Assembly: GCA_963724325.1 (NCBI GenBank)
Contig: CAVRUH010000007.1
Location: 192,001-256,000, forward strand
Direction: 5' to 3'
Source: Waddliaceae bacterium
GTDB lineage: Bacteria > Chlamydiota > Chlamydiia > Chlamydiales > Waddliaceae
Length of the DNA stretch: 64,000 nt
Below are positions 24,361 through 40,158 of this stretch, piece after piece; the stretch's first letter is position 1, and the number at the start of each line of letters is the position of its first letter. Under the pieces are notes generated by a model. The model was not told where the DNA came from, did no database searches, and worked only from the letters and a program-made list of their open reading frames with translations. The translations under genes were made by a program, and so were the position numbers.

Positions 24361-24383
24361 ATATCTCGTTACTTCACAAAAAA

Positions 24384-24831
24384 AACAGGATATGCCTCTA
24401 TAATCGCACGCCTTGGAAAAATAACAGGATATGCCTCTATAATCGCACGCCTTGGAAAAATAACAGGATATGCCCCTATAATCGCACGCCTTGGAAAAAT
24501 AACAGGATATGCAGGATCGCAAGGCGGCAGGATATGAAGGATGGGGGAAGAAGGGGGTAACCTTCTTCCTCCCATCCTTCATATCCTGCCGCTTTGCGAT
24601 CCTGCATATCCTGTAGAATATTTCAGGAAATGTAAGATAGGAAGGTACAGGATATGCCCCTATAATCGCACGCCTTGGAAAAATAACAGGATATGCAGGA
24701 TCGCAAGGCGGCAGGATATGAAGGATAGGAGGAAAAAAAGTTAACCCCCCTTCTTCCTCCCATCCTTCATATCCTGCCGCTTTGCGATCCTGCATATCCT
24801 GTAGAATATTTCAGGAAATGTAAGATAGGAA
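24384..24831. repeat. Composite REP/BIME-like cluster: 39-bp tandem units plus two ~115-bp palindromes
   Basis: The unit aacaggatatgcc(t/c)ctataatcgcacgccttggaaaaat starts at 24384, 24423, 24462 and ~24647. Hairpins at 24502-24614 and 24686-24802 have arms acaggatatgcaggatcgcaaggcggcaggatatgaaggat. Confidence 0.95.
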
Positions 24832-31582: not shown

Positions 31583-34500
31583 ATGATTCCGAACTTGGTG
31601 CCTGTTGCTACATCTAGAGTTAAGCCTCTTATTGAGGTGGGTGGGAAGAAAAAGAATGAAGTGCATATTGCTTCACCTGTATCGCATCGCTCCAGCCTTC
31701 TATCGTCTTTTCTGGATTTACATCTCATTTATCCACCATTCCCTTTTGAAATAAAAAATCAGGCCATTCTCGATAGGCTCGATTCCCTGCCGGGAAGGAA
31801 ATTGCTCGATTGGGTTATCGAAAAAATAGGAAGTGCAGATGTTCTCGAATACCATTTTGTTGGCAGTGCGATCAACGATGCTTGCAAAAATGATTTTTTC
31901 CTAGATTGCCTTGCTCTGCTTAATTTGCCTGCTGAGATGAAAGAGGATATTGCCAAACTGATCGTTAAACGTACAAACGAGTTTAAGGATGTCGATTATA
32001 GAATAAGGGTCGATTCTAATGTTGATCTATTTCAACTTGCCGAGACCTTGAATAAGACGACCTTGATTCAAGCGGTGTATCGTGCTGAGGATAGAAGTTT
32101 ATTAATTATTCCTAGTGAACAAATGGATATTAAAGTTGATATTTGGGTCTACACAGGCGAAATATCCGGCTATGCTTTTTGTACAGATAACCTTCGAATC
32201 AACCTCAAGACTTACAGGATCGAAAGCGATAATCCTTGGGGTTGGTGGAGGGGTCAGGTTTTTCGTGTAATCGATTTGACGAAAAGCGGCAATCGACATC
32301 TCTTCATGAGGCTTGTTGATAAGGAAGTGAACCGTTATACAACGACGAAAGGGACAGAGTTTTTCTTTTATGACCTATGGGATCCAAACGAATATAAACG
32401 GGTTGAGGAGGTATCGGTACAACAGCTTTTCAAAAGATTGACTGTTCAACGCATATGCCTAGAGCATTGTAAAGACCAGTCTCAGTTGCTGTTTCTAATA
32501 AATCAAACCTCCCAAGTAAATGGAAAAATAACGTCGAACCGCTTTCTAAGTACATTTTTTGATGCTTTAAATTCCAAAAATAAGGTGGCCCCTTATTTAC
32601 ATGCGATTGTTAGATTGATAGCCGCAGTGGCTCTGCGTGAAAGATGGAAAAAGCTTCGTGTTAAATTGCTGAAGCATGAAGACGAATGGTATCTACGCAT
32701 GCGCCTTGAGGGTCAAGATTTATTACTCAAATTTCAACCCTATATTGATTTATCTTTGTTATCCGGCTTGGATGAAAAGACTTGGGAGTATTTGAAAAAA
32801 GTGATGCATTCTCTTTGGTTGGACGGGATTGAATTGCGTCCCGTCGACAAAAACTTCCGTTCAGAAATCAATAAATATATAGATAACGATCTTTATAAAA
32901 AGTTAAAGCAGCTGTTTTTACATGGTGTTAAGAGTGTTTCAGTAGATAAATTTATATCATCTCAACAGAAAACCCTTGCTGAATTTTTGATTCAGAATTG
33001 TACTGAGCCTGCCGAACTCCTTTGGCAGGGTTTGGAAGTATTGACAAATTATGATCAACCCGAGATCAAACGGAAACTATGTTGGGAGGCTGTGGAGAAT
33101 TGTTTGCAATATCATGGATATAATCAGGCTGCCGAGCTAGTTAGGGGGCTGCGCATGGAAAATATAGAGCCGGAGTGCGGCTATGAATTATTCTTTAACA
33201 AGCTGCTAGACGGTAATTGTAATGAATCTGTTCTTCAAACATGTAATCCATATGGTTTTGAGCTTGCTTGGGGGGAACTTGCAAAGGCAGATTCGAGAAG
33301 TCGTAAGCAAAAATTGGTTGAATTGGTGGATGCATCAGAGGCGTCTGATGAGGAATATCTTAGGATTCGCGATTTGACAAAAGTTAAGTCAGTGAAGCTT
33401 TCCGAGGCACGGCTGACATCAATCATGGATTCGCAAGAGTTAGCAGTAGTTTGTCCATTGATTGATAGGCATGATAGAATTGAATACAAAAATTTGCAAT
33501 ATTGTGAAAAGTTAAGTGGTATCATTTTGGGGGCGATTGCTTCATTGGGATATTCTTCACTCACACCTACATGGATTGCAGCTTTTTTGAAATCGGGTAG
33601 GTTCATTGGAGAAAAAAAAGATGTTTGTTCGTTTCTGGTCAAGCAGGATATTGACACAGATGTAAAATCTGAGTTGCTGCGAATGTCTGGAATTCATGAT
33701 AAAGACCTTTGGAGACATATTGTAGGGGAATATTTACGAAATAAAGGCGAATGGCCGAATGATTTCACTATTGGTGGTATGCCGTCGGAAACATTAAGCG
33801 CCTGGTGCACGATTATTCAAAATGCGGAGAAAACCGATAAGATTATACCAATTATCTCAAAGTTAGATGATGAATATGGTCTTAAAAAAGTTGTTCTATT
33901 ACATCTTTTGAAGGGATGGGGGAAGAAGCAAATCCATCATTCTGTGTTAACTCTTCTTGATACAACAAAAGATAAGCTTCCCTGGGAAGAGATTGTCAAA
34001 GAGGCAAATAGTCCTCTCGACATTCTGACGAATCTAAAGGAAGCTAATAGAGGTGTGTTTAATGTTTTTCCGGCCCTAATGAGTGTTGTAAATCCTAAAA
34101 ATGCTGAATTTCTTTTTTCGTGGTGGATTACAAAAAAAATGGATCAACTTGAGCATGAGCAGGCTTTGAGATGCTGTGGAGATAAATGGATCAAAGAATG
34201 CCTTATGTTAAATCCTAAGAAGGCTCTCACATTTTTAAAGAAAATCGCTTGTCCTAAAACGATCACATTTGTGATAGAGGTAGCTGGTGCAAGGGATAAT
34301 ATTGATAAAGATTTATTTGAGTTACTTTTGAGGGCATCATTTGATGTAAATGATCACGGTAAAACAACAGATTATGTGCTTGATAACTCACCAGCAAAGA
34401 CCATTCAAAATGTTGAACTCGCTGCACAGGTAGTTATGTATGCCGATCAATTATTGCGAAATCCACAGGGTAACCTGCATGCTATCGGTAGATTATGGGC

Positions 34501-37500
34501 TCTTATTCCAAAAATCTTTATTCCAAAAGATATGCCTCCGCTTGCACCTTCTCATCGATTGCTGGCCTTATCTAAAGCAGGGTATATGCCGATTGTGATT
34601 ATGATGCTTCACGAAAGCAATTCTATGGAAAGAAAAAAAGTTGAGCCGAAACTCTATTGTGAAATCGTGCGCAAACTGCAAGACTCTGAACGGAAAATTG
34701 AGCTCCTCTCAGGTTGTCGGGTTTCATCACCAGCTCTTCAGGACATTTGGTATAATATTGCATTTGCTGGAGAGCCGCGCAGGCCCATTCGCTGTAAATT
34801 AAATTTGGTAACTATTGGCCATCAAGTTGGCATTGCTGCAGATGTCGTTCAATCTTTTGCAGTAGACGTGCTTCAAAACATCCATTTCAATACAGATATT
34901 GAATTGAGCCTTATTGATTCAGTTTATCAATTGCTCGATGTCATTAAGACCCCTGAAATATTTAAACTTTGGGAGGCCCTGGAAAAGACAGGCAAAATTT
35001 CGAAAGGAAAATTATGGAGTTCGGCTCTTTCCATTATCAAAAATAGTCAGAATGCTCCTCAATCTGCATTAGTTTACTGGTTAGCTGATAACATAAATCA
35101 TGGTAGTTCAGAAGAATTTTTTGTATTGATGCAAACTTTATTACCCAAATTACCTGAGGAATTGACTCACAAAATCGCTAATGGATTCCTTAAAGCTCTC
35201 GCTGTATCAGGGCATGCCCAAGCCAAAGAGCTCTTTTGGAAGTACACAAAAGGAACCTCTGTTACTATGGAGGAATTAGAGGCCCTTGACCCAAATTACG
35301 AGCAAACTAAATTGCTTTTGAATGCGATGATTGACCGCTGTAAACCCAATTCAGAAAATGTTAAAAGTATCTTGCTTGTTTGCCGCATATATGCTGCTTG
35401 CTTTACTGAACATCGATACTGGGCCGATGTTCAGAATATGACACGACAGTTGGTTATTCTGCTTATTAAAATTCTACCTTTTGCCCAAGATGAGAATATA
35501 ACTGTTATACTTGATTATGTAGCTTTTCTGTCAACACATGCCTCTTTTCACAAAATGCAAGATGCTGAGCAAATACTTCTCGATAATTTTGAATTTCTTT
35601 CCCATAATTGTCTGTCATTGATAACTACGGCAATTTATGCAGAAAAGTACATGTGGAATAAGCGTTGGGATTTTATTAAACTTCTTATTGATTCAGGTGT
35701 AGAAACAAAAATATTTTTGGCTGTGGTTTTAATTGAGCGAGAACCTGAAACGATTATTCGATTAGATGGAGCCATGTTTCAAAGGTTGTTTGGGATCACT
35801 CTTCTTAAAGAAAAATGTCTTAAAATTATCGATAAGGCTTTAAATCCAAAGCAACAATATATATTTCAACTTATCGTATTTAGGGAAGAACTCAAAATGC
35901 AAAAAGAAAACTCTTTGCCATTTCTTTTAATCTATATACAAAAACTTATTTTTCTGGTGAAGGATGATTCAGTTTTACCTCTTAAACCTTTTCTTCCGCC
36001 TTTGCTGCATTGCATATTTCAGGCCAAAGACGGGAGGGACCTCTTAATATTCGACAAGCTTAAGCAAGGAATTATTGGGAGACAGAATTCTATTGAAACT
36101 TCATTGTTAATGCTAGTAGAAGCCAAGAAGACAGATAATGAAAATATCCGTATTGAAATTTTTGAATATGTTTGTACGACGCTAGAAAGAGAGCGTATTA
36201 CCAAGCCTGAAGACTATAACCTTCTAATTGATATTTACAAAGTCTTAGAGCTGGCATCGATTCTAGTGCATACACATGACTCATTATGTAAATTTATTAA
36301 ACGCCTAAGTAAGGCTAGGAGGAAAATTGAAACATCCCCTTACAATGAAATAGAGATCCAGCGGTTGTTTGTTGCGACTCTTATGCTGAATAGCGAATTT
36401 CATAGATTCTGTCCTTCTATGAAACTTCAGGTACGATTCATTGTGGATATTATTATGGAGTTGAAGAATTATAAAACCCAGTCCACCGTAGATTTCTTGC
36501 AGCATATTATGTTTATTACTGCTGATCATGTGCTCTATCAATTTCCAGATGCATTTTCACTTTGCAATGAGATATTTCTAGAAGCATATTTAAGCTATTA
36601 TAGCACTGATCTGCTAAAACCACGCCTTAGATATCTCTTTAAGCATCTCGTTATTCAGATTCCCAAAGATAGGGCAGCACGCGAAATTAGCATTTGTAGA
36701 TTTAAAGTTGTTTTATCAACAATAACGCGTATCCTTCAGTTGCATCCTCAAATCCTTCCAGACTTAATTGAATATATTCATCAGGATATCGTCACACTGT
36801 ACAAAGAACATGAAGTGGATCCCTGGGATAGGCTCATTGCCATCTTATTTAAGGAATGTTCAGAGCAGGGGAAGGACGACTCGTATAAATCTCTTGCCTA
36901 TCTCCTTCAAACGCGTCCCTCAGGCGTGGTCCGAGTTGAAAGATTTCCGTTGGATTGCCAAGAAATAGTCCGAAACATACCTTTAATAGTTAATTGTGAA
37001 GAAAGAGTACATCATCTTTCTCGAAAAAAAAATGTTGATGTATTTGAGGAACTGAATTCCATATGGGATGAATTCCTCGATACCTTACCTGAAATGGTGA
37101 CTTCATATTTAATGAAAAGATCAATCAGATTTATACGTGAATTATTGAAAATTGTTTCAGAGCAAATTACCTCTAATTCAAAATCTGCTATAGAATTTCT
37201 TTTTAGGATCAGTAGCTCAGTCCAAACACAAAGGACTGATTATGCCTTTGGAGTAATGATGTCCCTAGCAGAAATATATAGGCCTGAAATCACTGGCGTT
37301 CTTTCTTGGCATGGCAAATTAAACCTTGAAGAGGCCAATTTTGTCATAGCGGAATCACAATGCCAGCTAATGAAATATGTGCCCTGGCCACAATATAAAT
37401 TTCCTGTACCATTATTTAAAGTGTTCATCGATTTTTACTTCAAACAATTTCTTCAAGAAAAACATCATGCTCCTGCATATATTGCAGACAGTGTTCGTGT

Positions 37501-38149
37501 CAAATTTACCTATGTTTATATAGGTGCTCTAAATGGCATGCTCATGAATTATAAAGAGCAAAAAGATAAACCGAAGTTTATGAGTAATTTGGGTAAGCTT
37601 GAACAAGTGCGTGGTCTTATAAGCAAAATAAAAATAAAAGTCGTTAATCATTTTGATTTACTTTTGCTTTTAACTTGTAATCATATAGAGTTTTTAAAAG
37701 ACAAGGAATTGGCAGAATTTATTTTAGATTTAATCTATCATAATTTTTCGAATTTTCATCCAACGATAAGCTCTGATATTATTTGTCAAAATCTTGCAAA
37801 ATTCGCAGTCCTTGCCTTTATGTACGGTCCCGATAAAGATACAGATAAGATTCCTAATAAATTTCAAAGAGCTGCATTTTTTAAGTCGGACCAAATTTCT
37901 CAAAAGTCCATACCCTTAGGAAAAGCTCCTGATATTAGCGCCGAATGTATGATCGCAGGAGCTTCTCTGCGGGTGATCACAAATGGTAAATTTGATGATG
38001 ATACGAGTCTTGAAATCAGGAGAGCAAGTTGTCAGAAAATTGAATGGATACTCCAAGATCTAAAAATTGACGAAATGCAAACAAGCGACTGGTATCGATG
38101 TTGGAAAGCTAAATTCAACACCATCAAAGATGCCCTTAAGGGCACCTGA
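31583..38149 (+). CDS. Giant 2188-aa protein; N-terminal nucleotidyltransferase-like motifs followed by a predicted helical solenoid
   Basis: Uninterrupted 6.5-kb ORF with HFVGS...KDVDYR...VDIWV near the N-terminus. Confidence 0.75.
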   Translation: MIPNLVPVATSRVKPLIEVGGKKKNEVHIASPVSHRSSLLSSFLDLHLIYPPFPFEIKNQAILDRLDSLPGRKLLDWVIEKIGSADVLEYHFVGSAINDACKNDFFLDCLALLNLPAEMKEDIAKLIVKRTNEFKDVDYRIRVDSNVDLFQLAETLNKTTLIQAVYRAEDRSLLIIPSEQMDIKVDIWVYTGEISGYAFCTDNLRINLKTYRIESDNPWGWWRGQVFRVIDLTKSGNRHLFMRLVDKEVNRYTTTKGTEFFFYDLWDPNEYKRVEEVSVQQLFKRLTVQRICLEHCKDQSQLLFLINQTSQVNGKITSNRFLSTFFDALNSKNKVAPYLHAIVRLIAAVALRERWKKLRVKLLKHEDEWYLRMRLEGQDLLLKFQPYIDLSLLSGLDEKTWEYLKKVMHSLWLDGIELRPVDKNFRSEINKYIDNDLYKKLKQLFLHGVKSVSVDKFISSQQKTLAEFLIQNCTEPAELLWQGLEVLTNYDQPEIKRKLCWEAVENCLQYHGYNQAAELVRGLRMENIEPECGYELFFNKLLDGNCNESVLQTCNPYGFELAWGELAKADSRSRKQKLVELVDASEASDEEYLRIRDLTKVKSVKLSEARLTSIMDSQELAVVCPLIDRHDRIEYKNLQYCEKLSGIILGAIASLGYSSLTPTWIAAFLKSGRFIGEKKDVCSFLVKQDIDTDVKSELLRMSGIHDKDLWRHIVGEYLRNKGEWPNDFTIGGMPSETLSAWCTIIQNAEKTDKIIPIISKLDDEYGLKKVVLLHLLKGWGKKQIHHSVLTLLDTTKDKLPWEEIVKEANSPLDILTNLKEANRGVFNVFPALMSVVNPKNAEFLFSWWITKKMDQLEHEQALRCCGDKWIKECLMLNPKKALTFLKKIACPKTITFVIEVAGARDNIDKDLFELLLRASFDVNDHGKTTDYVLDNSPAKTIQNVELAAQVVMYADQLLRNPQGNLHAIGRLWALIPKIFIPKDMPPLAPSHRLLALSKAGYMPIVIMMLHESNSMERKKVEPKLYCEIVRKLQDSERKIELLSGCRVSSPALQDIWYNIAFAGEPRRPIRCKLNLVTIGHQVGIAADVVQSFAVDVLQNIHFNTDIELSLIDSVYQLLDVIKTPEIFKLWEALEKTGKISKGKLWSSALSIIKNSQNAPQSALVYWLADNINHGSSEEFFVLMQTLLPKLPEELTHKIANGFLKALAVSGHAQAKELFWKYTKGTSVTMEELEALDPNYEQTKLLLNAMIDRCKPNSENVKSILLVCRIYAACFTEHRYWADVQNMTRQLVILLIKILPFAQDENITVILDYVAFLSTHASFHKMQDAEQILLDNFEFLSHNCLSLITTAIYAEKYMWNKRWDFIKLLIDSGVETKIFLAVVLIEREPETIIRLDGAMFQRLFGITLLKEKCLKIIDKALNPKQQYIFQLIVFREELKMQKENSLPFLLIYIQKLIFLVKDDSVLPLKPFLPPLLHCIFQAKDGRDLLIFDKLKQGIIGRQNSIETSLLMLVEAKKTDNENIRIEIFEYVCTTLERERITKPEDYNLLIDIYKVLELASILVHTHDSLCKFIKRLSKARRKIETSPYNEIEIQRLFVATLMLNSEFHRFCPSMKLQVRFIVDIIMELKNYKTQSTVDFLQHIMFITADHVLYQFPDAFSLCNEIFLEAYLSYYSTDLLKPRLRYLFKHLVIQIPKDRAAREISICRFKVVLSTITRILQLHPQILPDLIEYIHQDIVTLYKEHEVDPWDRLIAILFKECSEQGKDDSYKSLAYLLQTRPSGVVRVERFPLDCQEIVRNIPLIVNCEERVHHLSRKKNVDVFEELNSIWDEFLDTLPEMVTSYLMKRSIRFIRELLKIVSEQITSNSKSAIEFLFRISSSVQTQRTDYAFGVMMSLAEIYRPEITGVLSWHGKLNLEEANFVIAESQCQLMKYVPWPQYKFPVPLFKVFIDFYFKQFLQEKHHAPAYIADSVRVKFTYVYIGALNGMLMNYKEQKDKPKFMSNLGKLEQVRGLISKIKIKVVNHFDLLLLLTCNHIEFLKDKELAEFILDLIYHNFSNFHPTISSDIICQNLAKFAVLAFMYGPDKDTDKIPNKFQRAAFFKSDQISQKSIPLGKAPDISAECMIAGASLRVITNGKFDDDTSLEIRRASCQKIEWILQDLKIDEMQTSDWYRCWKAKFNTIKDALKGT

Positions 38150-38167: not shown

Positions 38168-38244
38168 TTTTCTTCCTATCCTTCATATCCTGCCGCTTGC
38201 GATCATGCGTATCCTGTTATTCCCTTCTTATCCTTCGTATCCTG
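38168..38244. repeat. REP-like repeat, left part (one full arm plus half of the interrupted arm)
   Basis: cttcctatccttcatatcctgccgcttgcgatcatgcgtatcctgtt matches the hairpin arms at 24.5-24.8 kb. Confidence 0.9.
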
Positions 38245-39832
38245 CCCCATCACTACTCAATTGGCAATTTTCATAAAGCATTTTCGGTGATATGCAATGC
38301 ATGATTTTTACCTCGCCTTTGGTTATGATAATTTTTTCAACTATTAAACGCACTAGTTTTTGCTTCTCATTGAATGGCAAATCTGGAGCCGATTTTTTAA
38401 CTCTTTCTAAAATACTTTCAAAAGCATGCTCCCAACCGGATCCTATTTCTTTCATAAGTTTTAAATTTAATCGTTCCTTTTTCTCGTTCTCAAGTTCGCC
38501 TCTTCTTTTTTCTAACCCCTGGGCTCTTTGACTTAGAGAAGTTAAATCTAATAAACCACTTTGATATGCATCTAAAAGTCGCTCTCGTTCTTTTATAAGC
38601 TTTTCTAATTCTTTTCTCATCGAAATTTCCTGCCTCTCGATTTCCTCGATATTTCCGCTTTCCTTTTCTCTTCTTTTAAACTCTTCCTGCAACATAAATG
38701 GATTTTGAAGCATTTGAATTATTTCATTATAGACCAAATCATCGAGCTCATCCTGCTGTATATATCCATTAGAACATTTTGGTATTTTATTATCCGAATG
38801 GCTTCGACAATGATAATAATTTTTACTTATTCCCTTATATCTTCTCATTCTTTTATAAAATTGACAACCACATTCGCCGCACGTGATTAATCCTTGAAGC
38901 AAGGAAGGTTCTTTGGTATTTCTTAAGGCTAATTCTTTATTTTTATTTATATATTCCTGTGCTGTTTCAAAATCACTTTCACTAATTATAATTGGAATAT
39001 TTATCTCGTACCAAGAGTCTTCATTAGTTTTTTTTCGTGGATTTTTTGGCTTCAGCCGTCTTAAGCCTTTATAATGCCTTATTTTATCTATACCCTCATA
39101 CTTTTCTGATTTACCATAGGCTGCAGTGCCTATATAAGCCTTATTTTTTAATATCCCTAAGATGGTTGCTGGAAACCAATAGGAATTTCCTTTTGGGCTT
39201 TTAATTTGGACCTCGCTCAACCTTCGACAAATTCCATTTAATGAAAGCCTCTCATGAACATATAAATAAAATATTTTTCTTACAACATTCGCGTCTGTTT
39301 CAACGATTTCAATCACCGTTTGACGTTCATTTTTTATCCTCTGATAGCCATATGGTAGCTTAGGAAGAATAGCTGGATCTCCGCTTTTTGCTTTATGAAT
39401 AGTACCTCGACGAGATCGATCTAATATTAATGCTCTTTCATATTCAGCAAAAATCCCCTGAAAATGAGTAAACATTATTGCTTCAGGAGTGTCACCTTGA
39501 GGAACATTTCTAATGAAAAGAACCTTCACTCCACATCGTCGAAATTCATCTAACAAAATAAGTTGATGAGGATAATTTCTGGCTAACCTATCTGGTGCAT
39601 AGATCAAAATCGCGTCGACAGACTCTGTTCGTATCAAATCTCGTAAATCATCTAAAGCAGGTCTTTGAAGACTTTGACCACTTATACCGTTATCAAGAAA
39701 AAGCCACGTTTCTGGAATTTGATATCCTTCTTTGAGTCCAAATTCTCGAAGAACCAATTCTTGACTTTCGATCGTTTCATCTTCTTTTTGCTTCTGTGAG
39801 GAGACTCTGGCATATATTGCGGCTTTCTTCAT
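38228..39832 (-). CDS. Large serine recombinase (resolvase, recombinase and zinc-ribbon domains)
   Basis: YARVSS catalytic Ser, DRLAR, PYGY, CGECG...YYHC...C zinc ribbon and coiled coil; GGAG RBS. Confidence 0.95.
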   Translation of the reverse strand: MKKAAIYARVSSQKQKEDETIESQELVLREFGLKEGYQIPETWLFLDNGISGQSLQRPALDDLRDLIRTESVDAILIYAPDRLARNYPHQLILLDEFRRCGVKVLFIRNVPQGDTPEAIMFTHFQGIFAEYERALILDRSRRGTIHKAKSGDPAILPKLPYGYQRIKNERQTVIEIVETDANVVRKIFYLYVHERLSLNGICRRLSEVQIKSPKGNSYWFPATILGILKNKAYIGTAAYGKSEKYEGIDKIRHYKGLRRLKPKNPRKKTNEDSWYEINIPIIISESDFETAQEYINKNKELALRNTKEPSLLQGLITCGECGCQFYKRMRRYKGISKNYYHCRSHSDNKIPKCSNGYIQQDELDDLVYNEIIQMLQNPFMLQEEFKRREKESGNIEEIERQEISMRKELEKLIKERERLLDAYQSGLLDLTSLSQRAQGLEKRRGELENEKKERLNLKLMKEIGSGWEHAFESILERVKKSAPDLPFNEKQKLVRLIVEKIIITKGEVKIMHCISPKMLYENCQLSSDGAGYEG

Positions 39833-40068
39833 GATGGAGCTCCTGATTGATGGATGACCGAATTGATATTGTGCTGTTGAGCAATATCGCTAAGCCCTTG
39901 ATTAATTTTGCTCTTTGATTCCTCTGAGGGTGATATTCGAGTACAATTTTTTGGACTTTGATGCATTTTGACAATGTTCTGAGCCTTGTTTCGAGAAGAA
40001 TATTTACCGATTGTACTTCTATCAAACATTTTCTCAAAACAAATTTTGCCAATTGAGTATTGATGGGG
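38245..40068 (-). mobile_element. Minimal large-serine-recombinase mobile element with 23-bp terminal IRs, flanked by a duplicated TG
   Basis: IRs ccccatcactactcaattggcaa (38245-38267) and ttgccaattgagtattgatgggg (40046-40068) match at 22/23. TG at 38243-44 and 40069-70. Removing the element restores atcc-TG-ccgcttgcgatc. Confidence 0.92.
39777..39980 (-). CDS. Small ORF upstream of and overlapping the recombinase start (possible accessory or directionality factor); start uncertain
   Basis: The frame of ORF 39777-40088 inside the element reads KIVLEYHPQRNQRAKLIKGLAILL...HEESRNIC. Its track start lies outside the IR. Confidence 0.4.
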   Translation of the reverse strand, partial: RTLSKCIKVQKIVLEYHPQRNQRAKLIKGLAILLNSTISIRSSINQELHHEESRNICQSLLTEAKRR

Positions 40069-40158
40069 TGCCGCTTGCGATCATGCATATCCTGTTATTC
40101 CCTAGGGAAACAGGATACGCATGATCGCAAGCGGCAGGATATGGAGGATAGGAAGAAA
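40069..40158. repeat. REP-like repeat, right part (remainder of the interrupted arm plus an inverted arm)
   Basis: tgccgcttgcgatcatgcatatcctgttattccct followed by agggaaacaggatacgcatgatcgcaagcggcaggatatggaggataggaagaaa. Confidence 0.9.

Follow-up and report, generated by a model that had tools for sequence, protein, structure and literature searches.

An insertion-sequence-like element encoding a large serine recombinase in a dispersed repeat of a Waddliaceae genome, with a putative circle-only recombinase tail

Introduction

Elements moved by large serine recombinases (LSRs) with 2-bp crossover cores, multi-targeting LSRs, insertion sequences (ISs) that target repetitive extragenic palindromes (REPs) with enzymes of other classes, and attachment sites (attP) located within archaeal integrase genes are all known. 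Here, we report the analysis of an IS-like element that resides in a 64,000-nucleotide stretch of contig CAVRUH010000007.1 from a Waddliaceae bacterium (the window, to which all coordinates refer; genome G000, 2.37 Mb, 85% complete). Judged from its sequence, the element is real, active-looking, and site specific and is built from these known parts, with what may be a family-wide switch for the direction of recombination.

Tn4451 and Tn4453 share with the present element an LSR (TnpX), identical 2-bp cores, and excision as a circle, which is a predicted form here (PMC5704250). These transposons carry cargo genes, are mobilizable, display low target specificity, and have no recombination directionality factor (RDF), whereas the element described here is 1.8 kb long and cargo-free, uses a target defined to one base within a repeat, and combines terminal inverted repeats with a candidate RDF and a gene-internal attP. 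Multi-targeting LSRs, such as Cp36, Pc01, and Enc9, resemble the present recombinase in that a single enzyme uses many sites per genome, and some of them have possibly evolved toward sequences present at several sites (PMC10083194). Members of the multi-targeting clade often contain DUF4368 and have relaxed motifs (PMC10083194), in contrast to the DUF4368-free recombinase and the single fixed site found here. In supplementary file 3 of that paper, the motifs of the present family and the term "Chlamydi" were missing apart from one unrelated phage row, and terms for reverse transcriptase (RT) or repeat targets did not occur in the supplementary files searched. Phage LSR and RDF pairs (SPbeta SprA/SprB, A118, and phiC31) have the same domain order as the present system, a similarly asymmetric attB (the target site) and symmetric attP, and a small partner that adds a strand at the DBD2/coiled-coil junction, as is predicted here (PMC12286644). 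The present locus differs by its lack of phage genes, by its multicopy target, and by a recombinase C terminus that varies with the integration state.

IS621 and IS1397 are REP-targeting insertion sequences. ISPsy8, ISPa11, ISPpu9, ISPpu10, ISRm22, and ISRm19 are likewise small multicopy elements for which extragenic repeats serve as a safe target, with insertion at a fixed position, as is the case for the element considered here (PMC1525189). ISPpu9 and ISPpu10 belong to the IS110 family of RNA-guided enzymes, whereas the present element encodes an LSR; only serine recombinase domains were found in place of the DEDD or DDE transposase of REP-targeting ISs. Suicidal archaeal tyrosine integrases of the SSV1 type also have attP in their gene, and integration rewrites the protein by splitting it into two large parts, an arrangement referred to as archaeal only (PMC8371274). 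At the present locus, attP likewise lies within the recombinase gene, but the enzyme is a bacterial serine recombinase that is shortened by no more than a small C-terminal tail, with every domain retained. Phage Mx8 has attP inside its int gene. In integration-dependent immunity, attP is located in a repressor gene (PMC4557955). IS607 is another IS-sized element with a serine recombinase, and members of its family usually carry tnpB as well. Its TnpA is small, has an N-terminal helix-turn-helix, and shows little target specificity (PMC4058570); the score of the present protein was 37 bits versus a cut-off of 110. The element is not described in the available portions of PMC4853749, the SPLASH preprint, and PMC13137831. 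In the open-access literature (not including subscription papers, bioRxiv supplements, or ISfinder), we found neither an LSR element of IS size that occupies REP-like repeats or intron RT genes nor a serine integrase with a tail supplied across attP.

Results and Discussion

Anatomy of the element

The element and its genes are as follows.

38245..40068, minus strand: IS-like element of 1824 bp; seven genome copies, five identical and two with the same three substitutions
38243..38244, unstranded: 2-bp crossover core TG, left junction
40069..40070, unstranded: 2-bp crossover core TG, right junction; TG is present at both junctions in 7/7 copies
38245..38267, unstranded: terminal inverted repeat, containing one attP half and the last seven element-internal codons of the recombinase gene
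40046..40068, unstranded: terminal inverted repeat, containing the other attP half and the first seven codons of a predicted circle-only tail
38228..39832, minus strand: large serine recombinase gene, 534 amino acids (aa) here, with the last four or five codons and the stop codon from the target repeat
39777..39974, minus strand: orfB, a conserved 65-aa gene with a putative TTG start, overlapping the recombinase start; candidate RDF

The terminal inverted repeats are 23 nt long and complementary at 22 positions (96%), with one mismatch. The two halves of the predicted attP agree at 22/24 positions, whereas the attB halves match the attP halves at 7 to 9 of 24 positions and each other at 2/24, leaving attB asymmetric, unlike the near-perfectly symmetric attP. 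An earlier reading of the window, made from the sequence only, had proposed a 1824-bp unit with 23-bp terminal inverted repeats between two TG dinucleotides and a near-palindromic attP unrelated to attB, and both proposals are borne out by these comparisons. Removal of the element together with one TG does leave an intact repeat arm like those located at 24.5 to 24.8 kb, as that reading had stated. Its claim that the unit encodes little besides an LSR was correct for the recombinase but overlooked the conserved small gene (39974-39777). No cargo gene is present in the 1824 bp.

Pfam cut-offs were exceeded by the Resolvase, Recombinase, and Zn-ribbon domains of the 534-aa open reading frame (ORF), which displays the features of an LSR, namely, a resolvase domain with the catalytic serine, a recombinase domain, and a Zn ribbon with a coiled coil. 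The four Zn-ribbon cysteines were invariant and Ser11 was nearly invariant in 60 aligned homologues. Pfam detected no DUF4368, and the protein scored below every cut-off of the named NCBIfam families (XisF, CcrA/B/C, and IS607). In the monomer model (mean predicted local distance difference test score [pLDDT], 76.5), the last strand spans residues 507 to 512, and residues 515 to 534 are unstructured. Solved Protein Data Bank (PDB) structures of the SPbeta integrase-RDF matched the recombinase.

Genome copies and target repeat

The arms of the target repeat in the window are listed below.

38222..38242, plus strand: left half of the interrupted arm (attB left), the source of the recombinase stop codon
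40071..40098, plus strand: right half of the interrupted arm (attB right)
38169..38218, plus strand: neighboring empty arm of the same repeat
40109..40158, minus strand: neighboring empty arm, inverted (REPIN/BIME-like pair)
24500..24805, unstranded: second cluster of the same repeat, empty, with alternating arms

All seven full copies of the element in the genome occupy the same TG of the same arm in the same orientation, and their outer flanks differ. Nothing of the target is duplicated beyond the 2-bp core. The seven encoded recombinases comprise 533 to 550 aa with target-derived ends. The asymmetric core of a serine recombinase fixes the orientation of insertion, and the common orientation of the seven copies is explained by the asymmetry of TG. 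The arm is approximately 40 bp long. Searching for exact 18-nt cores gave 123 empty sites in the genome; one pattern gave 228 empty arms in 80 clusters, mostly of alternating orientation; and allowing at most two substitutions in the core pattern gave 240 empty arms, versus one match in two shuffled genomes. Only 3 of these 240 arms were found inside ORFs of at least 150 aa, although such ORFs make up 80% of the genome. At 191 of the 240 arms, the repeat would provide a stop codon within five codons. The same-genus genome G001 (97% complete) contains 225 arms and no match to the recombinase, indicating that the repeat is independent of the element. Arm matches of any kind were present in 5 of 61 genomes. 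Together, these results make it highly likely that the recombinase targets the repeat in a site-specific manner.

The sequence-only reading described an IS-like LSR element that uses a multicopy intergenic repeat, a view supported by the common TG of the seven copies and by the approximately 240 empty arms. It had called for alignment of the flanks of all copies, and none was inserted at an unrelated sequence; arms with a single TG are plentiful. Its "dispersed REP-like palindrome" was accurate as to a dispersed, intergenic, multicopy target but not as to the palindrome, since a single arm folds weakly (-3.2 kcal/mol). The palindromes at the target are inverted pairs of arms, a single arm being hardly palindromic. 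As in REPs and REPINs, the arms are short, high-copy, extragenic, and clustered or paired in inverted orientation. REPs carry GTAG/CGTC-type tags (PMC3733652). Such a tag is missing from the arm consensus, and the weak fold does not provide the REP hairpin.

Three copies of the element lie in one repeat cluster (G000:C1:24026-29732), two of them head-to-head and 70 bp apart. Such an arrangement is suggestive of local hopping, and inversion or deletion could use these copies as substrates. In sequencing run X1, the only joint skipping the element (38197 to 40075, with a 20-nt side and loose ends on both sides) proved to be another repeat arm rather than an empty allele. The metagenome runs that best held the element were from soil, and an environmental chlamydia is the likely host. 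Tandem 37-bp variants of the arm devoid of the target core flank the 24.5-kb cluster (24380-24500).

RAYT proteins are unsupported as mobilizers of the repeat, since arms flanked none of the six Y1 (RAYT) transposase loci in G000, G001, and G006 (G000 being 85% complete). One Y1 transposase-like gene (L196; G000:C5:207478-207774) has its own tandem upstream repeat, which is unrelated to the target arm. A gene of family PF13366, which denotes PD-(D/E)XK proteins of the GxxExxY type, has an arm of the repeat on either side in G000:C1:338309-338717 (L274) and in G001:C4:120501-120839 (L280). Arms on both sides were found for only 2 of the 2154 ORFs of at least 110 aa in G000, and arms were present at two of nine PF13366 loci. 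The PF13366 gene is a candidate mobilizer of the repeat, in the place that RAYT occupies at REPINs.

Relatives in repeats and in reverse transcriptase genes

Of 8000 scored proteins, 2371 matched the recombinase at E <= 1e-20, and many of the best matches were on contigs of approximately 1.9 kb. Close relatives are patchy in the phylum sample: with this genome included, 4 of 401 had a match at E <= 1e-60. Matches on viral contigs had only 22 to 28% identity. Among the fetched loci, the ends of 138 elements (110 of them unique) could be defined, and 33 near-full loci were missed. In a quick tree of 60 rows, for which 31 of 63 long rows were dropped at random and the outgroups had very long branches, long and short elements formed sister groups (supports of 99 and 87, respectively).

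Short elements (1.80 to 1.87 kb; 38 to 53% identity) were represented by 17 unique insertions, including 3 from this genome. Their flanks are repeat-like and differ by lineage, with TC, AT, GA, TG, CT, and CG as cores, and the core was the same on both sides in 10 of the 12 insertions outside this genome for which flanks were available. Flank patterns of these relatives retrieved further copies, with none for reversed-pattern controls, and empty target repeats were found in five of the seven genomes searched (G407, G427, G421, G249, and G056 but not G151 and G586). G407 contained six intact matches and one broken match. One copy in G407 (L192; G407:C15) departs from the consensus, since it occupies the loop of another hairpin and is bordered by unequal cores (TG/GT). 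After kbl in G001:C3 (L237), there is a different palindromic repeat family, which resembles the repeats targeted by the G407 relative.

Long elements (2.0 to 2.3 kb; 32 to 41% identity) were found in Acidobacteria, Actinobacteria, Proteobacteria, Nitrospirota, Bacteroidota, and others (135 near-full loci, 70 with both ends defined by motifs, and 64 with 30 nt of both flanks). The PQG or SPxLxN motif of group II intron RTs was present in a flank of 61 of these 64 elements, versus 9 positives in 1460 control window pairs for the RT half-motif test. Removal of the element restored PQG-x-x-x-SP in 51 cases, 33 in the same direction and 18 in the opposite direction; the same RT half was present on both sides in 4 of the 33 same-direction elements. 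RefSeq plasmids, among them one of Bradyrhizobium or Rhizobium, confirmed the order RT half, CopG-type gene, recombinase, and RT half. Two intact RT motifs of the Waddliaceae genome are unoccupied. Long elements (e.g., L236:2085-2360) additionally contain a gene of the ribbon-helix-helix (CopG) type and, in their interior, a strong promoter-like site; the short chlamydial elements have neither. In L048, L067, L148, and L173, both flanks carry the same RT half, whereas L150 and L155 represent one RT site assembled with the element in both orientations; these layouts point to inversions between or within copies.

Recombinase reading frame across attP

The recombinase gene has its stop codon outside the element, in the target repeat, and an element-internal stop was lacking in 70/70 long relatives with defined ends. 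Nearly all of the 120 homologues listed end with the same motif followed by a few variable residues. The integrated form retains all domains, the catalytic serine, and the Zn ligands. Joining the element ends through one core keeps the recombinase frame, which continues through the following features.

39829..40068, minus strand: 79-codon frame by which the recombinase would extend past attP in the predicted circle; conservation is limited to the first approximately 20 codons
40024..40050, minus strand: conserved part of the tail, with a G/D-x-F-x-F-E/D-K/R motif and a predicted beta-strand pattern
39997..40037, minus strand: two sigma-70-like promoter matches over tail codons (three in the region versus 1.2 +/- 1.1 expected)

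At the far end of the relatives, 61 of 63 distinct long elements had no stop in the recombinase frame over at least 17 codons, the remaining two looking mis-anchored, and 9/9 short elements had none over at least 20 codons. In the other frames, the median first stop was at codons 12 and 6 (long) and 5 and 10 (short). Long elements keep the peptide F-x-F-E/D-R-x-L/V-x-Y-R past the inverted repeat with mixed synonymous codons. Single-base codon differences were scored over nine codons from the inverted-repeat edge in 59 of 63 anchored long elements (four were dropped). Synonymous differences accounted for 59% of the total in the tail frame versus 16% and 11% in the shifted frames, these shares being pairwise counts among related sequences and not independent events. 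Stops were found in none of the 59 elements in the tail frame versus 24 and 42 in the shifted frames, and the tails ended with TGA (36 elements), TAG (14), or TAA (9). The same test gave a weaker signal in the short clade (33% synonymous versus 22% and 15%; stops in 0, 4, and 10 of 10 elements). The short- and long-clade tails are homologous (probability of 91%; E of 1e-6).

In the present element, the tail frame ends in ATGA on the recombinase start, and the whole circle is a 609-aa ORF. The frame wraps around nearly as completely in three other short lineages; elsewhere, tails stop at 20 to 60 codons and, in long relatives, at 17 to 31 codons. A wrap-around ORF was not adopted as an essential feature, since only the first approximately 20 codons align and the tails vary. 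A 66-aa ORF (40029-39829) was rejected as a separate gene; the tail frame is preferred here, and the small gene that is conserved uses the next frame. The simplest reading of these sequences is that the tail is a protein segment made from the circle, which would be an indirect sign that circles exist. We consider it probable that the tail is translated and matters, and a circle intermediate, which the split reading frame implies, is likely.

The partner gene orfB

orfB is conserved in the short and long groups (consensus L-E-Y-x-F-D-R-L and K-L-x-Q-A-Y-x-L-L-V-P), and no Pfam family was assigned to it apart from a weak DUF2911 match in 1 of 51 members. In the predicted complex with recombinase residues 300 to 529, OrfB obtained a score of 0.63, versus 0.00 for the best of three controls. 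The threshold that we used was reached by 116 of 157 solved pairs and by 2 of 215 mismatched pairs, counts that hold roughly for our own alignments. The runs shared at least 78% of the contacts, with a partner pLDDT of at least 59. In the model, OrfB residues 9 to 14 form a strand along recombinase residues 507 to 513, and an OrfB helix lies on residues 493 to 497; the contacted segments are the last strand and helix of the monomer model. RDFs bind the DBD2/coiled-coil junction, where most of them extend DBD2 by a beta-strand, and this site may be blocked by beta extensions of the C terminus (PMC12286644). On the basis of the modeled complex, it is moderately likely that OrfB is an RDF.

Proposed mechanism and alternatives

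The element anatomy, the copy number, the target site, the absence of an internal stop codon, and the codon-level conservation of the tail were directly observed, and the explanation that we favor for them, which appears reasonably probable as a whole, is a repeat-hopping element with the direction of recombination set by the circle-only tail. The serine recombinase would excise an 1826-bp circle that re-inserts at another repeat arm. The chromosomal recombinase, ending with a few target-derived residues, would leave the edge strand of its Zn ribbon free for OrfB, and the tail-less enzyme with OrfB as an RDF would recombine attL and attR for excision. In the circle, the gene would read through attP and gain the conserved beta-strand, which would occupy or alter the RDF site, and the tailed enzyme would recombine attP and attB for integration, the asymmetric TG fixing the orientation. 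An increase in copy number would require either that excision follow replication or that circles enter again. Blocking of the RDF site as the mode of action of the tail is possible but on the doubtful side of even.

Several observations weigh against this explanation. The tail codons of the present element overlap promoter-like matches, and part of the tail conservation in the short clade may operate at the DNA level. The score of the OrfB complex may stem in part from likeness to the solved SPbeta integrase-RDF structures. The likeness between the tail and OrfB is slight (six columns, probability of 3%), and the idea of the tail as an OrfB mimic was dropped on this basis. No circle junction was detected in the Logan contigs of 8 of 19 listed runs (depth mostly of approximately 2 to 7), in 271 loci, or in viral contigs searched with one degenerate pattern, each of these searches having low power, and a weak search among 7989 candidates retrieved no natural circle-form protein. 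An orthologous empty allele was not found in G001 and G006, in which the region next to kbl differs. Cores were unequal in 2 of the 12 short insertions, and left and right cores were equal in only 37 of 64 long relatives and unequal in 27, which is not expected of a strict serine integrase without later rearrangement; the unequal cores of the long relatives suggest that copies have rearranged with one another or that ligation is tolerant. Finally, long relatives often have long target-derived tails, with stops up to 1382 nt past the end, and the chromosomal form of the recombinase thus seems not always tidy.

Alternatives to a tail-controlled direction were considered. The tail-less enzyme might perform both reactions in the manner of TnpX, with a tail that has no role other than to complete or stabilize the protein or to mark it for turnover, OrfB being a regulator or stimulator instead of an RDF. 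The Tn4451 recombinase is reported to carry out both reactions without an RDF (PMC5704250), and the weak likeness of the tail to OrfB and the near-perfect symmetry of attP fit such a scheme. We nonetheless regard it as unlikely in view of the predicted location of OrfB at the junction typical of RDFs and of the conservation of the tail across 32 to 100% identity. It is quite improbable that the element follows the logic of suicidal integrases, in which the tail-less enzyme would be weak or inactive, active enzyme would come only from a circle or a head-to-tail dimer, and rare circles would cause bursts. This logic has a precedent in archaeal tyrosine integrases whose genes contain attP and which are split and inactive once integrated (PMC8371274), and the seven near-identical copies, three of them within 6 kb, form a burst-like pattern. 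However, the chromosomal protein keeps every domain, the catalytic serine, and the Zn ligands, lacking only approximately 20 conserved residues, and intact orfB is retained in the integrated state.

In the least probable explanation, to which we give very little credit, the in-frame tail would result from constraints on the DNA (inverted repeat and promoter), and targeting of the repeat would depend on DNA structure (hairpin or cruciform) rather than on sequence read by the recombinase. The overlap of promoter-like sites with the tail, the unrelated repeats used by short relatives, the G407 copy in a hairpin loop with unequal cores, and the second frame (that of orfB), which is also open through the leader of the element, speak in its favor. 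The synonymous excess and the varied stop codons in 59 long elements, the exact base position in 7/7 copies in a weakly folding arm, and the coding motif targeted by the long relatives speak against it.

Implications

If the tail-controlled repeat-hopping scheme is correct, the element uses REP-like repeats as a safe harbor in a third way for an insertion sequence, with a class of enzyme that does not need host factors and leaves no double-strand break. The state of the DNA would then rewrite the enzyme, allowing a phage-free serine recombinase element to excise and re-insert. We tentatively propose, with somewhat less than even confidence, that the element belongs to an undescribed family, widespread among bacteria, of serine-recombinase ISs with two or three genes that reside in other selfish DNA (group II intron RT genes in many phyla and assorted REP-like repeats in chlamydiae), are easily retargeted between unrelated attB sequences, and have a built-in direction switch based on attP within a gene. 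The family would provide many natural sets of recombinase, attP, attB, and RDF readable from sequence, including sister enzymes acting on unrelated targets, and could be useful for the study and engineering of LSR specificity and for multicopy integration. Annotated chromosomal proteins of the family are probably the truncated form, and their integrase activity may escape screens in which they are cloned as annotated.

Neighboring genes

The genes on either side of the element, a 2188-aa ORF and the glycine C-acetyltransferase gene (kbl), are convergent. The 2188-aa ORF (31583-38149), which has no Pfam match, ends 20 bp from the repeat cluster.

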